In this document: positions 13,295 to 21,117 of the stretch, one piece after another
Position numbering within the stretch: the first letter of the stretch is position 1
How the letters are laid out: each line of letters opens with the position of its first letter
DNA from: Planctomycetota bacterium
GTDB taxonomy: Bacteria; Planctomycetota; PLA2; JAEUHO01
NCBI GenBank assembly: GCA_965223505.1
Contig: CBDCWP010000035.1
Coordinates: 1 to 49,064 of the forward strand
Direction: 5' to 3'
DNA length: 49,064 nt
Made by a program: the position numbers and the translations under genes
The notes under the pieces: generated by a model
What the model was told of the DNA's origin: nothing
Databases searched by the model: none
What the model saw: only the letters and a program-made list of their open reading frames with translations

Positions 13295-14054
13295 CGATCA
13301 GCGCGATGTTGTCCTGACCGCCGGGGTTCCCGTCGACGCCGCGCAGCGCGAGCTCGGTCAGCGTCGTCACGAAGTGCTCCGGATCGCCGCTACTCGACGC
13401 ATGGAGCGACTGGAGGTGCCCTGGCCGCACCGACGTCTCGGGCCGGCCGTAGTGGCACTCGTCGATGCCGTCGGTGAACACGACGACGAGGTCGCCGGGC
13501 GACGCGCCGAACTCGAAGCAATTCGCGTTGTCGAGGGCGAGGCTACGCGGCCGCGCCGGAGAGACGAAGCGGATTGACCTCTCGTTCAATGCCTCGAAGC
13601 CGTCGTCGCCGACCCGCACGCACGACGAGTCGCCGTACGACATGCCGAAACCCCGACGCCGCTGCCGGTCGTACGTCACCACCACGAGCGTCGTCGCGGA
13701 CGGCGACGCGGTGGCGCCTTCGTCGGCGAGCGACGTGACGACGTCGTTGAGCGCCCGCGGCGTCGGGATCGGCGCCACGACACGGGCCGCGAGCAACTCG
13801 AGCAGCCGGTGACCGGACACGTCGCCGTAGTGCGCGTCCGCCACGGCCGCCAGGCAGAACGTGCCGTCGTCGACGGCGAAGAGCGCGTCCTCGTTCGGCT
13901 GCGCGGCGTCTCCCTTGGCGGCGAGACTCGGCGACGCCGGGTCCGACCCGACACTGAGGCTGCAGGCCGTGCTGCCGTCGTTGAGCAGACGACATACGAA
14001 CGAACCGTAGTCTGTGTGCGATCGCCCGAGCAAGAGCAGCTTGTAAGGCTCCAT
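13281..14054 (-). CDS. PP2C/SpoIIE-family protein phosphatase
   Basis: NEDA, AVADAH, YGDS, FTDGI and GGQDNIALI metal-binding motifs. Confidence 0.85.
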   Translation of the reverse strand: MEPYKLLLLGRSHTDYGSFVCRLLNDGSTACSLSVGSDPASPSLAAKGDAAQPNEDALFAVDDGTFCLAAVADAHYGDVSGHRLLELLAARVVAPIPTPRALNDVVTSLADEGATASPSATTLVVVTYDRQRRRGFGMSYGDSSCVRVGDDGFEALNERSIRFVSPARPRSLALDNANCFEFGASPGDLVVVFTDGIDECHYGRPETSVRPGHLQSLHASSSGDPEHFVTTLTELALRGVDGNPGGQDNIALIAMRA

Positions 14055-14369
14055 GGCGCGAGCATACTAGCGTGGGTCAGTTTGCAGCTACGCGCGTGCA
14101 TGCGGCTTGCCGGATGCTCGTCGGCGCTTCGCCGACCGCCCCGCTCTCGTCCTTGCGTGGACTGCCACGCGGCGTCTCTCATCGGCTTTGCGGCGACTTC
14201 GCCCCGACATGCCGACCACGACCGGGCAGCCCCTGCGACGGCACGTATCGCCGCCGATCTGCCCCTTCGTCCAAGTGACCCACTGCCGAGCATACGGCGC
14301 TATTCCCTCGCCGAGTTGAGCCGTATAGAATTCGGCTTCGAGTGTGTCGCGCAACGTCGAAAGGGACGC

Positions 14370-15851
14370 TTGAGCCGGATCATCCCCTCGCACTGGGGCC
14401 ACCAAACGAAGTTCCGCACGGAGGCCCAAGCGCTTGCCAACTCGATCTTCGACGAGCTGGATCCGTCACTGCGTCCCAACGTCCTGCTCGTCGGCCTCGT
14501 GTCGGACCACGACAAGGACCTGTATCCCCTGTTCGTCGACGCGCCCGGCCAGGACTACTCCCCGAATCTCTTCAGTGAAGCCAGCCGCCGCGCGCGCGAG
14601 CTGCGCGCGAAGACGTACGGCGAGAACGGCGACAGCATCGATCCGCTCGAGAAGCGCCGCATCGTGCTGGACACCTGGCGCCTCGCCGTCGAGGAGGTCC
14701 TGGCGGAGAGCGACGACGCCACGAAGGTCGTCTCGTTCTGCTCGGCGCCCCGGCCCGTCGAGGAGTTCCTGGTCTCCACGGTGCTGCAGCTGGACCGCAA
14801 CGCCTGGCGGGCGTACTTCGCGCTGCGCCAGGACGAGGACGATCAGCAGGCGGCGCGGCCCGCGAGCCTGCTCGAGGCCACGGTCCTGCAGTACATGCGC
14901 AAGTGCGCGGTCGGGCTGGCCGAACGGCATGCCGGCATGTACGAGTCGGTTCAGGACCTGGACCACGAGGAGATCTTGCGCGCGGCCGGCCGCATCCTGG
15001 CGGACTACCCGGCGCTGGGCGGGCAGCGCGACCTGAACCTGCGCGGGCTCTTCAACGCGTGCAACACCATCTCGTCGCTGCGATACGAGGGCGGGGCGGG
15101 CGTCGGCGCCCTCATCATCTCCCAGCCCGGGCACGAAGGCGTGAAGGTGCGGGTGAAGCTCCGTCGGCCGGTACGGCTGTACGACTACACGGCGGTGCGC
15201 AAGATGCTGGAGACGACCCGGCCCGGCTACGCGCTCTTGAGCGACGGCGCCGTGGTCTACGGCATCGGCGCGCTCAATCTGGCCTATTCCGTCCCGGGAG
15301 AGAGCCTGTTCCAGGTCAGCTTCCAGCAGCACTACGTGTGGGAGCTCAGCTACGGCGCGCGTGTGCTCATGCGCGTGAGCTACGGCCATCCGCGACTGCC
15401 GCGCTTGTCGATCAACGAGGGCCGCTTCCGGGTCGCGATCACGCGCACCTTCGGCATGATGGAGTCCGATCAGTTCGACCGGTTGTGGGAGATGGCGCTC
15501 GCGGCGACCAAGCAGGCGCACGGGACGATTCTCGTGATCGGCGAGAATGCTGCCAAGGAGGCCGAGCGGCTCGCGAAGCAGTCCGCACCGATCGACCCGA
15601 TCCAGGTCGACGAAGAGGGGTTGCTCGCGTTGAGCAGCGTCGACGGCGCGATGTTGATGGACCCGGACGGCGTGGTCCACGCGTTCGGCGTGATTCTCGA
15701 TGGGCGCGCGTCCACGAAGGGCGACCCGGCTCGCGGCGCCCGTTTCAACTCCGCGTTGCGCTACGTGGACTCGAGCGAGTCGCCCTGCATGGCGATCGTC
15801 GTGTCGGAAGACGGCGGCGTGGATGTGATCCCCGGGCAGCGTCGTTCCTGA
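14370..15851 (+). CDS. Diadenylate cyclase (DisA_N/DAC domain) with long N-terminal domains
   Basis: TTG 14370 after GAAAGGGA RBS. C-terminal HGTILVI, SVDGAMLMD, GVILDG, RGARFNSA and IVVSEDG match DAC motifs; no TM seen. Confidence 0.85.
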   Translation: MSRIIPSHWGHQTKFRTEAQALANSIFDELDPSLRPNVLLVGLVSDHDKDLYPLFVDAPGQDYSPNLFSEASRRARELRAKTYGENGDSIDPLEKRRIVLDTWRLAVEEVLAESDDATKVVSFCSAPRPVEEFLVSTVLQLDRNAWRAYFALRQDEDDQQAARPASLLEATVLQYMRKCAVGLAERHAGMYESVQDLDHEEILRAAGRILADYPALGGQRDLNLRGLFNACNTISSLRYEGGAGVGALIISQPGHEGVKVRVKLRRPVRLYDYTAVRKMLETTRPGYALLSDGAVVYGIGALNLAYSVPGESLFQVSFQQHYVWELSYGARVLMRVSYGHPRLPRLSINEGRFRVAITRTFGMMESDQFDRLWEMALAATKQAHGTILVIGENAAKEAERLAKQSAPIDPIQVDEEGLLALSSVDGAMLMDPDGVVHAFGVILDGRASTKGDPARGARFNSALRYVDSSESPCMAIVVSEDGGVDVIPGQRRS

Positions 15852-15905: not shown

Positions 15906-15933
15906 TTGGGCACGGCCCCCGGGTCGCTAGACT
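15906..15933 (+). promoter_or_regulatory. Candidate sigma70-type promoter TTGGGC-N16-TAGACT
   Basis: -10 TAGACT lies ~6 nt before the first hairpin of the structured intergenic element. Confidence 0.45.
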
Positions 15934-15939
15934 GACGGT

Positions 15940-16165
15940 GCCGCAGCCAGGCAGTTGGGCGGCTGTCGGCGGTCGCGTCGACGGACGTGGCACACACATG
16001 GCGCCGGGGTGGACGACCCCAGGTTCGAAAGGAGGTGATCGATGGTTCATCGTGGCTTATGGAGGGTCTCCGGCTAGCGGAGCAGCCGACGGGCTGAGTC
16101 CTCTCGATAGGACCGCCTTTCGAAGACACACGGGCGGGTCTCCACAGGGGGATCCGCCCGTTTCT
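15940..16165 (+). ncRNA. Candidate structured small RNA or sORF-containing transcript
   Basis: Series of hairpins, GAAAGGAGGTGATC at 16027-16040, upstream promoter-like element and downstream terminator hairpin. Confidence 0.5.
16042..16077 (+). CDS. 11-aa sORF MVHRGLWRVSG
   Basis: ATG 6 nt after the GGAGG core of an unusually long SD; TAG at 16075-16077. Confidence 0.4.
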   Translation: MVHRGLWRVSG

Positions 16166-16166
16166 C
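16130..16166 (+). terminator. Intrinsic terminator-like hairpin
   Basis: CGGGCGGGTCTCC-ACAG-GGGGATCCGCCCG (13-bp stem, 2 G-U pairs) followed by TTTCTC. Confidence 0.6.
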
Positions 16167-16228: not shown

Positions 16229-16282
16229 GTAGGGGCAGCCCTTGTGGCTGCCCAATCGGGCCACCACGAGGGTCGCCCCTTC
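16229..16282. repeat. GTAG-family REP doublet (REPIN/BIME-like), copy 1
   Basis: GTAGGGGCAGCCCTTGTGGCTGCCC plus an inverted, degenerate second REP type (GAAGGGGCGACCCTCGTGGTGGCCC). Confidence 0.85.
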
Positions 16283-16364
16283 AGCCAAGGCGCGCGCGCA
16301 GTCTTGTAGAGAACCGGGCGCAGGAGCGGGGGCAGGGCCAGACCCGATTCGGTATGCTCTGCGA

Positions 16365-19300
16365 GTGAACCGCTACGCGCTGCTGGCCGGAATCTTGTTG
16401 GTCGGCCTGACGTCGCCGGGCACCGCCGAAGAAGAGCCCTTCCTCACCGTCGATCAGCTCGTAGACCACCCTGCGCCCTGGTTTGAGTCGGTCACCCCGA
16501 AGGCGATGCGCGACGCGACCACGCTGCGGATGGCCGTCGTCCTGATCGAGTTCCCCGATCGCAAACACGACCCTCGCACGACCCCCGACGGCGTGCGCGA
16601 GATGCTCTTCTCGCGCGGTGAACACGTGCAGGGCGCCGACGGCAAGGCGGCTCACGGCTCCCTCGCCGACTACTACGCCGTCCAGTCCTACGGCCGCCTC
16701 GCCGTCGAGGGCCACGTCTTCGACTGGATGGAGATCGAGACCCCCGTCGCCGCGCTCCTCCAGATGCCCATGGTCAACACGCGCGGGAAGTACCGCGAGG
16801 TCGCGCTGGCGACACTGCGCAAGCGCGAGGGCGAGGACGTGCTCGCGGGCTACCACGCGATCTGCTTCGTGGGCGCGGGCGATCCGGGGCGGCGTGGGCG
16901 CGGGCTCTGGCCGCATCGCGGCAAGATCGAGGACGTGCCCTACATCCAGCTCTCCGAGGTCTACCCAGCGGATCAGCTGCTGCAGGTCGGCGTGCCCGCG
17001 CACGAGTTCGGGCACCTGTTCGGCTTCAAGGACATGTACGGCATCCGCAACCCGTTCCGCGGGCCGGGCCCGTGGAGCCTGATGGCGCGCGGCACGCACG
17101 GCGGCGAACCCTCCGAGCGCACGCGGCCCTTCTCGATGTGCGCGTGGTGCCGCACGCAGATCGGTTGGCTGAAGCCGGTGACCGTGGATCCGCGCGTCGC
17201 GCGCAAGGTCGTGTTGCGGCCGACGCTGTCCGGACCGCGTCAGGCACTGCGGGTCCTCGTCAAGGAAGACGGGTCGGAGTATTTCCTGCTCGAGGTGCGC
17301 AAGCGGGAGGGCTGGGAGACGGATCTTCCTGACGAAGGCCTGTTGATCTGGCACGTGGGGGAGCGCCGCAACGTCGAGGGCTTTCCGGTTCGCGAGTACG
17401 ACACGATCCTCGAGCAACCGCATCCGCTCGATGTGAACGGCGCCACGACGCGCTACGCGGCGTTCAGCTGCTGGCCAAAGCCGGGGCAGAGACACTTCAC
17501 GCCGGATTCGTCGCCGTCCAGCCGCTCGAAGTCCGACGATGCGCTGCCGGTCTTCCTACGCAACATCACGCGCCGCGAGGACGGCTCGGTCGAGCTCGAG
17601 ATCGGTCCCGGTCCGACGCCCGGCCTGATTCCGGCAACGAAGATCGAAACGCGCACGCGTCGTCTCGTGCCGATCCTCCTGCTCGAGGAAGACGACACAC
17701 CGCCGGACGGCGCGTCCCCGCGCGACATCCGGCGCGAGATCGACAAGATGCTGCTGTCGCAAGGCGCCTACATCGGGAAACGCCGCTCGCTTCATCGCGA
17801 GGAGGTGGCCGGCAGCCTGCGCGACTACGTGGAAGAGGCGACCTGCCTGCGCGAGTCGCTGAGCGGACCGGGTGTCAAGCGATCGGACGGTCCGTGGACG
17901 ATCGTGCCCGCCGGGTCGCTCGCCGATCCCGCGCAGGCGATTCGACAGGCCCTGCCAGAGAAGGAAGAGCCCGAGCTCGTCATCGCCTTTGCCGCCCTGC
18001 CGGTGCGCGACGAGCGCTACGAACGCGGCACGCTGACGGACGGGACGCCGTATCTGCTCGTTCGCTGCGGTGACGGGCACTTCGGCCACGTCGGGCCGAT
18101 GGCGCGTTGGTGGATGGAGGTCACGCGGGGTCCCGCGCGTCACGGCCTCGACGACGACTGCCTGCTCGGCACGGGCTGGCGCGGCGCCGGGGACACCGGC
18201 CCCCGCCGGCCGTTCCACCCGTGTCTTCACTGCAAGCTGCGCGCGGGTTGGCTCCATCTCACGACGAGCGACCGGCTGCGGCCGCTCGAGATCTACGGCG
18301 AAGCGGCGTGGAGCGCGGACGGCGCCTCGATGATGGTCAAGCGGGCCAAGGTCGGCTTCGAGGCGGACCGCGAAGCCGACTTCGACACGCCGCAGATCGT
18401 GGACATGACGCGCGACACGGCGTACCCGACGCTGGCCGACGTCCGTCGTTCGTTGCTCGAGGTCGGTCACTCGACGTCCACGGTCGGTCGCACGCTGCAC
18501 AACCGTCCGATCTACCTCGTGCGCATCGCCGCGCCCGGGAGCGTGCACCCCGACGAGCGGCCCGCGATCCTGATCACGGCCGCGCTTCACGGCAACGAGG
18601 CGTCGACGGTGCCCGCCGTGATGACGTTCGTGGAGCAAGTTCGGCCGCGCTCGGACCGCACCATCTACGTGATGCCGTGCGTGAACGCCGACGCGTACGA
18701 GGACTTCGTCTCGAAGCCGTACACCGTGTGGCGCCCCCGCGCGAACATGCGGCCCGTCGACGACGACAAGGACGGCAAGCTCGACGAAGACGGCTACGAG
18801 GATCTGAACGGCGACGGGCAGATCGGCTTCATGCGCCGGCTCGAAGACGGCAAGTGGAAGATGCTCGGTCGCGAAGGCATCGACAACGACGAGGACGGGA
18901 AGTTCTCGGAGGACGTTCCCGGCGGTGTCGATCTCAACCGCAATTTCCCCCAGGGCTGGCGGCCCGGGCGCGGCATGTTCGGACTGTCGCGCGGCGTGGC
19001 GCCCTTGTCCGAGCCCGAGTCGAAAGCCGTTGCCGACGTCCTGCGCTCCCATCCCAACATCGGGCTCGTCGTCGACGTGCACAACGACGCGGACTGCCTC
19101 TTCATTCGCCTGGGCAATCCCGCGGACCGCAAGACCGACATCGCCTCGCTGCCGGACTACGCGTGCTACCGGCCGGTCATGGACATCGCCGAAGACGTGT
19201 TCGGCTATCCGACGCGGCGCTGCGGCAACGCAGGGCTGTTGGCCGTATGGGCGTACGAGGCCAACGGCATCCCGGGCACGATCCTCGAGATCGGCAACGG

Positions 19301-21117
19301 CGCGGGCAAGCGCGCACCGGCGGCGGGCGATGCCGAGGTTCGCAACGCGTGGTCGAGGCGACACTTCGACGTCGACGGCTGGAACGACTGGAAGCCGTTC
19401 GACCATCCCCAGCTGGGGGCAATCGAGATCGGCGGCGACTGGAAGACGTTCGTGAAGCGCAGTCCGCCCGCCGGTCACGCACTCGGTGTCGTCTGCGCGC
19501 GCACCCGCCACTTCCTGGATCAATGCGTGGACGCGCTGCCGCGACTGCGCCTCGATGTCGAGACCGGCACACCGCCGACGTTGGTGATCACGAACGAAGG
19601 CGCGCTGCCCACGGCTTCGCATCGGCTGCATGCGCTCGAGCCGTCTCGAGCGCGCATCGTGCTGTCGGTCGAGCCCGGTGCCGCGATTGCGAAGCTCCCC
19701 GAAGACGCGGTCGTCCTGCAGCGCAACGCGTTCGAGGTGCGCGTGGCGTTGCCGGCGCTTCCGGCCGGGGGCGCGCACCGACTGACGCTCGACGCCAGCC
19801 GCGAGATCGTCGCCCGCGTCTTGCCCGGTGGCCCGATCGGCGGTGCGTTGTTGCGTTGGCGGCCGGACCCGAGCGCCGGCGGGGACGTCAAGATCGTCCA
19901 GATGGACGCGCACAGCTCGCACTACGTGCTGCACGTGCCGGCGTCCTACAAGAAGGGTGCGAAGGTGCCGTTGCTCGTGGACCTGCACGGCGCGGCGCCC
20001 GTCACGCGCGGCCCGGCGCGCATCTCCGTTCGGCCCTGGAAGAGCCTGTGCGCCGAGCACGGGTTCATTCACGTGTTGCCGCAGTCGCGCGCCCGCGCGT
20101 GGGGCCACACCGACGGCGACGAGGCGTTCGTCAACGCGTGCATCGAGCACGTGATCGAGAGCTACGACATCGACGAGAAGCGGATCTGGCTGACCGGCTT
20201 CTCGGCCGGCGCCGACTATGCGCTGCACTTCATGACGCAGGATCCGAAACGATTCGCCGCCGCCGCGCCGATGATGCCGGGGCAGTTCCTGTACGGGCGC
20301 GCGGGGCGCGGACTGTCACGGGAGGGGCTCGAGAACTTGAAGGAGATCCCGCTCCTCTACGTCACGGGCAGCCGCGACGTGCGTCGCGGCACCGTACGCA
20401 AGATCGTGTTCACGCTGCGCGAGATCGGTCTGCAGTCGCACATCCGTGAGGTGCCCGACGTCGGTCACGAGTTCCCGGGGCAGGCGGAGTACGCGCGCAT
20501 CTACGCGTTCCTCTCCGGCACAGACGAGTCGGGCGACGCGATTCCGGAGTTCGAGCTCGCCAAGAAGGCGGTGAAGGGTGGCCACGTCGTCATCGCGCCT
20601 GCGAAGAAGGCGAAGGGCACGGTGGTCGTGCTGCCGAGCAAGGATCCGCCCGAGACCCGGCCGGAGCTACGGGGCGTACGAGCAGGTTGCCGCCGGCGCG
20701 ACGAAGAACGGCTACACGGTGTTGCTGCCGTGGAGCGAGAAGGGCTACGACGCCGCGTTGCTGAGCGCGTGCGTGAAGGCGGCCAAGGCGCCCAAGCCGG
20801 TGATCCTGTTCTCGCACGGCGGCGCGGGGAGCCCCGTCGCGCACCTCGGAGGCGGCGCCGTTGACGGGGCTGTGCTCAGCGGACCGCGCGGCGCGTTCCT
20901 GCGGGCGATCGAGAGGCAGGAGATCGCGATCCCTACGATCGTGTTGGTGGGGGGACGGTCATTCGAGCTGGAGAAGCTGAAGACGGCGATCGGCAAGCGC
21001 GTCGAGGAGAACGCGCCGATGGAGATGGTGATCGTCGAGGGGACGCGTCTGTATGAGCCGCCGCCCGAGTCGCGCATGGAGCGAACGCTGCGCGAGATCA
21101 TGGGGCGGGTGCGGTAA
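16365..21117 (+). CDS. Secreted multidomain hydrolase: M6 metalloprotease + degenerate M6 + M14 carboxypeptidase + alpha/beta esterase + degenerate hydrolase (one frameshift)
   Basis: GTG 16365 with signal peptide; PAHEFGHLFGFKDMY, WSLMARG (M6); LHGNE, GVDLNRNFP, DVHN (M14); LLVDLHG, TGFSAG, GHEF (esterase). An extra G in GGGG 20671-20674 joins it to the ORF ending at 21117. Confidence 0.85.

Follow-up and report, generated by a model that had tools for sequence, protein, structure and literature searches.

Dual-function small RNAs (sRNAs) such as SgrS/SgrT, RNAIII/hld and SR1/SR1P are short independent transcripts that combine a regulatory fold with a translated small open reading frame (ORF), and rnTrpL/peTrpL is a liberated attenuator RNA with a leader ORF. 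The STAB-SD of the Bacillus thuringiensis cry3A mRNA is a 5′ stabilizer resembling a Shine–Dalgarno (SD) element, whose extended complementarity to 16S rRNA holds the 30S subunit and starts no normal gene. In microcin C operons, the mccA minigene consists of a 7-codon ORF with a strong SD and a hairpin terminator, and its short transcript is abundant and stabilized by ribosomes. Here we analyse an RNA gene in a 49,064-nt stretch of DNA from a member of the Planctomycetota (assembly GCA_965223505.1, contig CBDCWP010000035.1, positions 1 to 49,064; the whole stretch is hereafter called the window). The RNA unit is self-contained, occupies about 227 nt of the + strand (15940–16166) and sets a long complement of the 16S 3′ tail in front of a mini-ORF. 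We tentatively favour the reading that this RNA works through ribosome engagement, as a translated regulatory RNA with a self-gating SD, and not via its peptide.

The window RNA differs from each of these systems. ORFs of dual-function sRNAs and liberated attenuators have 14–43 codons and come with conserved peptides or known base-pairing targets, and we know of none among them with a full-length anti-SD complement or with a triad of SD, anti-SD and ORF-internal pseudo-SD. The STAB-SD is found at the 5′ terminus of a long mRNA and is followed by neither a start codon nor an ORF, whereas the window RNA has a start codon, an ORF of fixed length and its own terminator. MccA needs a C-terminal Asn and the neighbouring genes mccB–E; in the planctomycete family the C-termini vary and there are no such neighbours.

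Judged by design, the nearest known RNA is the Caulobacter sRNA CC2171 (RF01867), a likeness of layout that is no proof of common descent. Both are stand-alone units with a 13–16-nt tail complement, a start codon 5–7 nt after, a brief ORF of low sequence conservation, a folded 3′ region and a terminator, a layout found in the window RNA and in 23 of 23 extracted alphaproteobacterial loci. They belong to different phyla, and the CC2171 ORFs run to 18–32 codons beginning M-S-[H/S/N], as against 9–14 codons in the planctomycete family. The SD of CC2171 falls within the first 15 model positions, whereas about 85 nt of hairpins precede it in the window RNA. Common descent traced through a GACGGG motif after the stop codon was considered and dropped, the motif being present in just 3 of the 23 matches of an unbiased sample; three motif-bearing alphaproteobacterial loci are uninformative here because they were picked by a pattern that demanded GACGGG.

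Searches of Rfam 15 gave no match at the gathering score anywhere in the window, and at a permissive threshold only chance-level matches appeared besides CC2171. That match reaches 20.9 bits against a gathering score of 75 (E = 0.035 on 801 nt, E = 0.054 on the genome), short of family membership, and is carried by the SD block and the terminator only. Conversely, a covariance model of the planctomycete family scores a Sphingobium CC2171 at 24.4 bits, a weak cross-match. RF01867 itself was detected in 22 of 151 sampled alphaproteobacterial genomes at E ≤ 0.001, five of them above the cut-off. All 23 extracted matches (loci L187–L210) carry a 13–16-nt complement of the 16S tail followed by an 18–32-codon ORF, which starts with Met-Ser in 22 and often with Met-Ser-His; the catalogued CC2171 ‘sRNA’ looks like a small-ORF or dual-function RNA. 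One preprint records its expression in Methylorubrum, gives its function as unknown and identifies no conditions that affect it (bioRxiv 10.1101/2022.01.24.477521), and in the Rfam 15 paper the family appears just in a table (PMC11701678).

The first-pass annotation of this DNA saw no likeness to tRNA, tmRNA or 6S RNA by eye; the Rfam families without a match in the window include tmRNA, 6S, SRP, riboswitches and leaders. A 6S-like RNA was rejected on two grounds: RF00013 has no match in the genome at E ≤ 0.1, and the fold lacks a closing stem joining the 5′ and 3′ ends. In the literature we found no description of the planctomycete RNA family; searches with a 12-nt motif from it returned only papers quoting the universal 16S reverse primer, and no described small RNAs in Planctomycetes were found. 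By these searches the family is uncatalogued, and it is spread through the Planctomycetota.

The 16S-tail complement and the RNA family

The first-pass annotation had described a stand-alone structured RNA with a 14-nt complement to the usual 16S tail and an 11-residue small ORF. The 16S gene of the same genome ends in ...GGATCACCTCCTTTCT, a tail identical in five of five genes (its own and those of four related genomes), and the complement can be called exact because the tail was taken from the host genome’s own 16S gene. Among 5,154,780 bases, this is the only locus besides the 16S gene itself with tail complementarity of at least 13 nt. Complementarity of 12 nt occurs at three other loci, on contigs C28:11805 (+), C34:32753 (–) and C40:10853 (–). 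The ATG begins 1 nt past the 14-nt element and 6 nt past its GGAGG core, which is an optimal spacing. In a rough count with uncurated starts, 14% of 2137 long ORFs had a strong 5-mer SD upstream of the first start, as opposed to 7% when the search position was shifted as a control, which suggests that SD-led initiation is not the rule in the host genome.

A DNA search found a single copy of the RNA in its own genome; of 24 other genomes from the host’s family, 11 have a homologue. Model R1, a covariance model of the RNA core, gave exactly one strong match in 23 of 29 family genomes, spanning 12 of 16 genera, and matches in 31 of the 40 genomes of the order, including 8 of 11 from a sister family; the class comprises the same 40 genomes. 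Model R2, a second covariance model made from 30 members, matched 23 of 151 genomes sampled evenly over the Planctomycetota, 6 of 7 within the class and 17 of 144 outside it. On inspection 16 of the 17 outside matches keep the same layout, the remaining one (G055) being a coding region and judged false. A genome without a match counts as ‘not found’, because the genomes are incomplete and the sensitivity of the models is limited. Contigs named as Planctomycetia or Planctomycetota metagenome-assembled genomes occur among the pattern-scan matches listed, most of which are unrelated genes with strong SDs.

Fifty members are examined below, of which the class supplied 30, the phylum search 18 and the pattern scan two. 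No feature of the family is better conserved than the long anti-SD complement, which measures at least 11 nt in 45 of the 50 and at least 13 nt in 25. Read across genomes, the RNA is a conserved, single-copy family that forms a stand-alone unit of its own; its recurrence between variable flanking genes bears out, and strengthens, the original description of a self-standing RNA with a maximal SD and a small ORF.

The mini-ORF and its peptide

The combination of SD and small ORF recurs in the collected homologues, and the length of the ORF is tightly held. By script it has 9–14 codons in 47 of 50 members, rising to 49 after two hand corrections (G004, G026), and one member has 18 codons. The start codon lies 4–9 nt past the SD core in 49 of the 50 and 11 nt past it in one. 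After the corrections, the starts are ATG in 33, GTG in 13 and TTG in 4, and the stops are TAG in 32, TAA in 11 and TGA in 7 (n = 50). Length classes differ by whole codons, through a 3-nt insertion in one genus and a 3-nt deletion in at least two lineages. Given the conserved length, start and stop together with these whole-codon changes, the frame looks read.

These properties bear on a ribosome decoy or stabilizer without productive translation, in which the super-SD would hold 30S subunits as a sponge, a hibernation aid or a STAB-SD-like 5′ shield and the ORF would be a by-product of structural constraints. Such a role would suit an anti-SD complement of 11–16 nt that is the most conserved segment of the RNA and far longer than translation requires. 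However, start codons at 4–9 nt from the SD core in all but one member, interchangeable stops and whole-codon length changes are hard to explain without translation, and, with one ribosome held per RNA, very high copy numbers would be needed. We regard a decoy as unlikely. The first-pass suggestion of a 30S-sequestering RNA holds up in part, through the prominence of the anti-SD complement.

The peptide itself appears, by inspection only, to be weakly constrained in sequence. Four of the five residues behind Met differ between two congeners that have nearly the same flanks (MDKRG... versus MGLCD...), and a C/T exchange makes one codon read Arg in some members and Cys in others. An internal GGAGG is kept as RNA but is read in three frames across lineages (GGA GGN, CGG AGG or TGG AGG). 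The stretches that code for the repeated ‘basic pair, then Pro-Ser’ are precisely those that pair with the 3′ strand of the RNA.

A micropeptide mRNA, which the first-pass annotation had also entertained, would make the basic 9–14-residue peptide the effector, for example as an arginine-rich RNA- or ribosome-binding peptide, with the SD and the fold setting its amount and timing. In its favour, 49 of 50 members keep the length and frame of the ORF, its stop and the distance of its start from the SD, a loose residue pattern recurs across families, and the analogous alphaproteobacterial CC2171 RNAs also have an ORF right behind a perfect SD, with M-S starts in 22 of 23. Against it stand the radical residue changes between close relatives and the source of the basic pair and Pro-Ser in GGAGG and CCGUCC, which are conserved as RNA, vary in frame and covary with the 3′ strand. 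Comparison of flanks across loci shows no conserved partner gene nearby, and a peptide of 10–12 residues that varies this much gives very little basis for a defined fold or a specific site of binding. We consider an effector peptide possible but doubtful: the conserved length, start and stop speak for it and the weakly conserved peptide sequence does not. In view of that weak conservation a mixed reading fits better, in which the RNA is translated, yet ribosome engagement probably outweighs the peptide. The peptides do not fit a type I toxin mRNA, being 9–14 residues long, basic and not hydrophobic, as against a hydrophobic membrane peptide of about 20–60 residues.

Alternative pairings and a proposed self-gating mechanism

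The 3′ strand of the RNA (GGAC.GCC-UUUCGAA-GACAC) carries a copy of the last 16S-tail bases (CCUUUC) and can pair in two ways. In conformer 1 (closed), it pairs with the SD flank and the first half of the SD. This helix, helix 2 of the model, has 87.6% of cells paired and both-side changes at 5 of 9 pairs in the 30 sequences used for all percentages of paired cells given here; examples of double changes are UUCAAAAGG with CCUUUUGAA and UUCGGAAGG with CCUUCUGAA. In conformer 2 (open), the 3′ strand forms a long helix with the ORF, joining GUG to CAC, the internal GGAGG to CCUUU and CCGUCC to GGACGG, with 81–83.5% of cells paired and double changes at 5 of 17 pairs, including CGACC with GGUCG. 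On this modelling, both pairings are compatible with the 30 sequences. Unconstrained minimum free energy (MFE) folds place near-identical sisters in different conformers, and the constrained fold energies are no more than about 5 kcal/mol apart in most of 22 same-family members tabulated. A further pairing, between the GACG loops and CCGUC in the ORF, was dropped: one genus changes the ORF site while the 5′ loop stays invariant, leaving no supporting covariation.

The SD, its anti-SD copy and the ORF-internal pseudo-SD make up, as read from sequence, the classic three-part logic of a translational switch. Because the third part lies inside the ORF, a translating ribosome would have to free the anti-SD strand, which could then close the site behind the ribosome. 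In the open form, a 30S subunit would dock very tightly and translate the 11 codons. The passing ribosome would unzip the ORF from the 3′ strand, and the freed strand would snap onto the vacated SD, shutting the site until the RNA refolds. The RNA would thus gate itself and sense ribosomes, taking them on one at a time. Its output might be a ribosome-dependent shape change that makes the anti-SD-like strand, together with the invariant GACG loops, accessible to a putative trans partner; alternatively, the output might be ribosome occupancy itself, and the short basic peptide would not be the product of importance. Maximal docking, a fixed and very short track and weak peptide conservation are why we think that the RNA acts by ribosome engagement. 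The sequences directly show the features themselves, how they are conserved and that both pairings are compatible with them; transcription, translation, switching and downstream effects are what we infer.

Several observations weigh against action by ribosome engagement or against the switch that it invokes. For the window RNA itself, conformer 1 (closed) is predicted to be more stable by 7.8 kcal/mol, and bistability in this RNA is a thermodynamic guess. The two switch helices show modest covariation, and the alignments behind the pair counts were fitted to the model, so the counts lean towards it, among kin that are not independent. The peptides show a recurrent pattern of a small residue after Met, a basic pair, then L/P/W, then S/P/T, by which a role for the peptide may be envisaged. 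Finally, a simple consensus scan called neither a promoter nor a terminator for the RNA, the promoter because the –35 hexamer matches just 3 of 6 bases and the terminator because the T tract is short.

The assignment of promoter and terminator rests instead on conservation. A –10 hexamer (of TAGACT, TAGAAT, TATATT or TACATT type) aligns at the equal place in 12 of 12 family sequences, and the sister family has –10 boxes of TATTCT or TACTCT type. The terminator hairpin, helix 4, is the best-covarying of all, with 97.6% of cells paired and both-side changes at 12 of 13 pairs, and several relatives have longer T tracts. We infer that the RNA is transcribed from its own promoter, with a start near 15940, and ends at its own terminator.

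From 5′ to 3′ the order of parts is the –10 box, three hairpins, the SD, the mini-ORF, another hairpin, the pyrimidine-rich anti-SD-like strand and the terminator hairpin (Table 1). The predicted folding energy of the + strand is –119.1 kcal/mol, whereas 200 shuffles average –99.75 ± 4.98 and none of them is as low (z = –3.89); for the – strand the effect is weaker (z = –2.98). In an RNAalifold consensus of 12 relatives, the outer pair of hairpin 1 shows a double change in 8 of the 12 sequences, and the stem of hairpin 2 covaries at five pairs with double changes in 2–5 sequences each, around a GACGG loop that is invariant or nearly so. Hairpin 3, helix 1 of the model, has 85.8% of cells paired and double changes at 3 of 4 pairs. 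A GACG lies at most 42 nt downstream of the stop codon in 38 of 50 members. The first-pass annotation proves accurate for TTGGGC-N16-TAGACT, the peptide MVHRGLWRVSG, seven GGA triplets and the terminator hairpin, all of which we confirm. Its hairpins at 15940–15970, 15972–15991, 16006–16020 and 16083–16096 recur in the MFE fold, from which the one at 16098–16113 is absent; that stretch pairs there with the ORF, a local 5-bp stem still being possible.

Table 1. Parts of the RNA gene and its promoter, in window coordinates
Feature	Position	Strand	Remarks
–35-like hexamer TTGGGC	15906–15911	+	3/6 consensus bases; conservation in relatives not clear
–10 box TAGACT	15928–15933	+	16-nt spacer from TTGGGC
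5′ hairpin 1	15940–15970	+	MFE fold; kept in RNAalifold consensus of 12 relatives
5′ hairpin 2, 8-bp stem, GACG loop	15972–15991	+	MFE fold
Hairpin 3 (GGGG...CCCC), directly upstream of SD, GACG within loop	16003–16024	+	MFE fold
Helix P1, 5′ strand	16025–16032	+	Pairs with 16116–16123 in MFE fold; covers 5′ half of SD
SD element GAAAGGAGGTGATC	16027–16040	+	14-nt perfect complement of 16S 3′ tail
Mini-ORF MVHRGLWRVSG, 11 codons + TAG	16042–16077	+	ATG at 16042; stop TAG 16075–16077
ORF-internal GGAGG (pseudo-SD)	16061–16065	+	6 nt upstream of last sense codon
Hairpin H5, 5-bp stem, GACG loop, shortly after stop codon	16083–16096	+	MFE fold
3′ switch strand: GGAC..., anti-SD-like CCTTTCGAA (16116–16124), then GACAC	16109–16129	+	Pairs with SD flank or ORF
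Intrinsic-terminator-like hairpin, 14-bp stem 16130–16161, then TTTCTC	16130–16166	+	MFE fold

The seven GGA triplets in the 227 nt of 15940–16166, and an SD that resembles a CsrA site, would suit an RNA that titrates CsrA/RsmA, one of the first-pass suggestions. Three GGA sites are conserved (one in the SD, one in the ORF-internal GGAGG and one in the 3′-strand GGAC), but they lie in or beside helices, two of them in helices and not in loops. A search for a CsrA gene (PF02599) gave no match in the genome, which is 92.47% complete, while the control genomes of E. coli, B. subtilis and T. maritima were positive, and this absence undercuts the idea to the point that we consider a CsrA sponge extremely improbable.

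A second contact with the ribosome is hinted at elsewhere in the RNA. Octamers complementary to positions 1417–1433 of the host’s own 16S rRNA occur in 25 of 49 family RNAs against a mean of 5.7 in dinucleotide shuffles; by the same test the 16S 3′ tail itself is matched in 48 of 49. The matched strand (L044, the G000 16S gene) leads into the decoding-centre helix. The matches stem from the invariant GACGGGC loops and from a CGUGGCUU stretch in the ORF, and in the window the facing sites are 15980–15987, 16052–16059 and 16088–16094, comprising GACGGGC-type loops and the ORF stretch CGTGGCTT. This complementarity beside the decoding centre would also favour a decoy, but the motifs are short and the sequences related, for which reasons the match could be chance. 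That the RNA is a dedicated small-subunit ligand, gripping 16S rRNA at more than one place through the 3′ tail and the decoding-centre strand, strikes us as quite improbable. If true, the RNA would recognize 30S subunits whose decoding centre is still open, whether immature, inactive or hibernating, and could serve as a checkpoint, a chaperone or a ribosome parking site with the mini-ORF as release route. Such a role would fall in a phylum apparently modest in SD-led initiation, and CC2171 would do likewise in Alphaproteobacteria.

Genomic context and wider meaning

The RNA lies in a 490-nt gap flanked by two + strand genes. Upstream, the gene at 13809–15851 (+) combines DACNG and DACNH sensor domains with a following diadenylate cyclase domain of DisA type, which makes it a candidate cyclic di-AMP synthase. 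Downstream, the ORF at 16242–20864 (+), whose gene start is uncertain, encodes a large protein with a peptidase M6 (immune inhibitor A-like) catalytic domain. Between the RNA terminator and the start of this peptidase gene, 16231–16280 forms an almost perfect inverted repeat of 50 nt, which reads as a GC-rich hairpin on both strands, with chance-level ‘MIR820’ matches on both strands.

At other loci the flanking Pfam families vary and include DAC cyclase, peptidases M6 and M28, CitMHS transporter, GDPD, ABC ATPase, HAD hydrolase, histidine kinases, GCS2, SIR2, Der GTPase and nuoA/B. The sole recurring neighbour is a formiminotransferase-cyclodeaminase (FTCD) gene, which lies directly upstream in the orientation of the RNA in three genomes, representing two distant families (L002 1868–3136 (–), L006 591–1310 (+) and L168 1–1284 (+)).

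This variation bears on a cis-acting leader, in which the mini-ORF would encode a leader peptide and the terminator would attenuate the downstream peptidase M6-like gene. Ribosome-dependent attenuators are made of just such parts (a short ORF, alternative pairings, a terminator), and the next gene in the window lies on the same strand. However, the downstream gene changes from locus to locus and is convergent at 2 of 12 family loci. Moreover, 53 nt separate the stop codon from the terminator stem, and a terminating ribosome would therefore not touch the terminator; among the MFE folds of 32 members, the only folds inspected for it, none pairs the terminator arms with an anti-terminator. With a context that is not conserved and synteny limited to that patchy upstream gene, we rejected attenuation of the downstream gene and consider it very unlikely.

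If the ribosome-engagement reading is correct, this would be a widely kept single-copy RNA built around the mRNA-docking tail of the ribosome, one more among the few RNAs that are broadly conserved in bacteria, and from an understudied phylum that is hard to study. It would offer a natural system for the effects of a maximal SD in vivo, namely capture, pausing, release and self-gating by an internal pseudo-SD. Together with CC2171, the planctomycete family may define a general class that is tractable in Caulobacter or Sinorhizobium, where genetics and ribosome profiling (Ribo-seq) exist.

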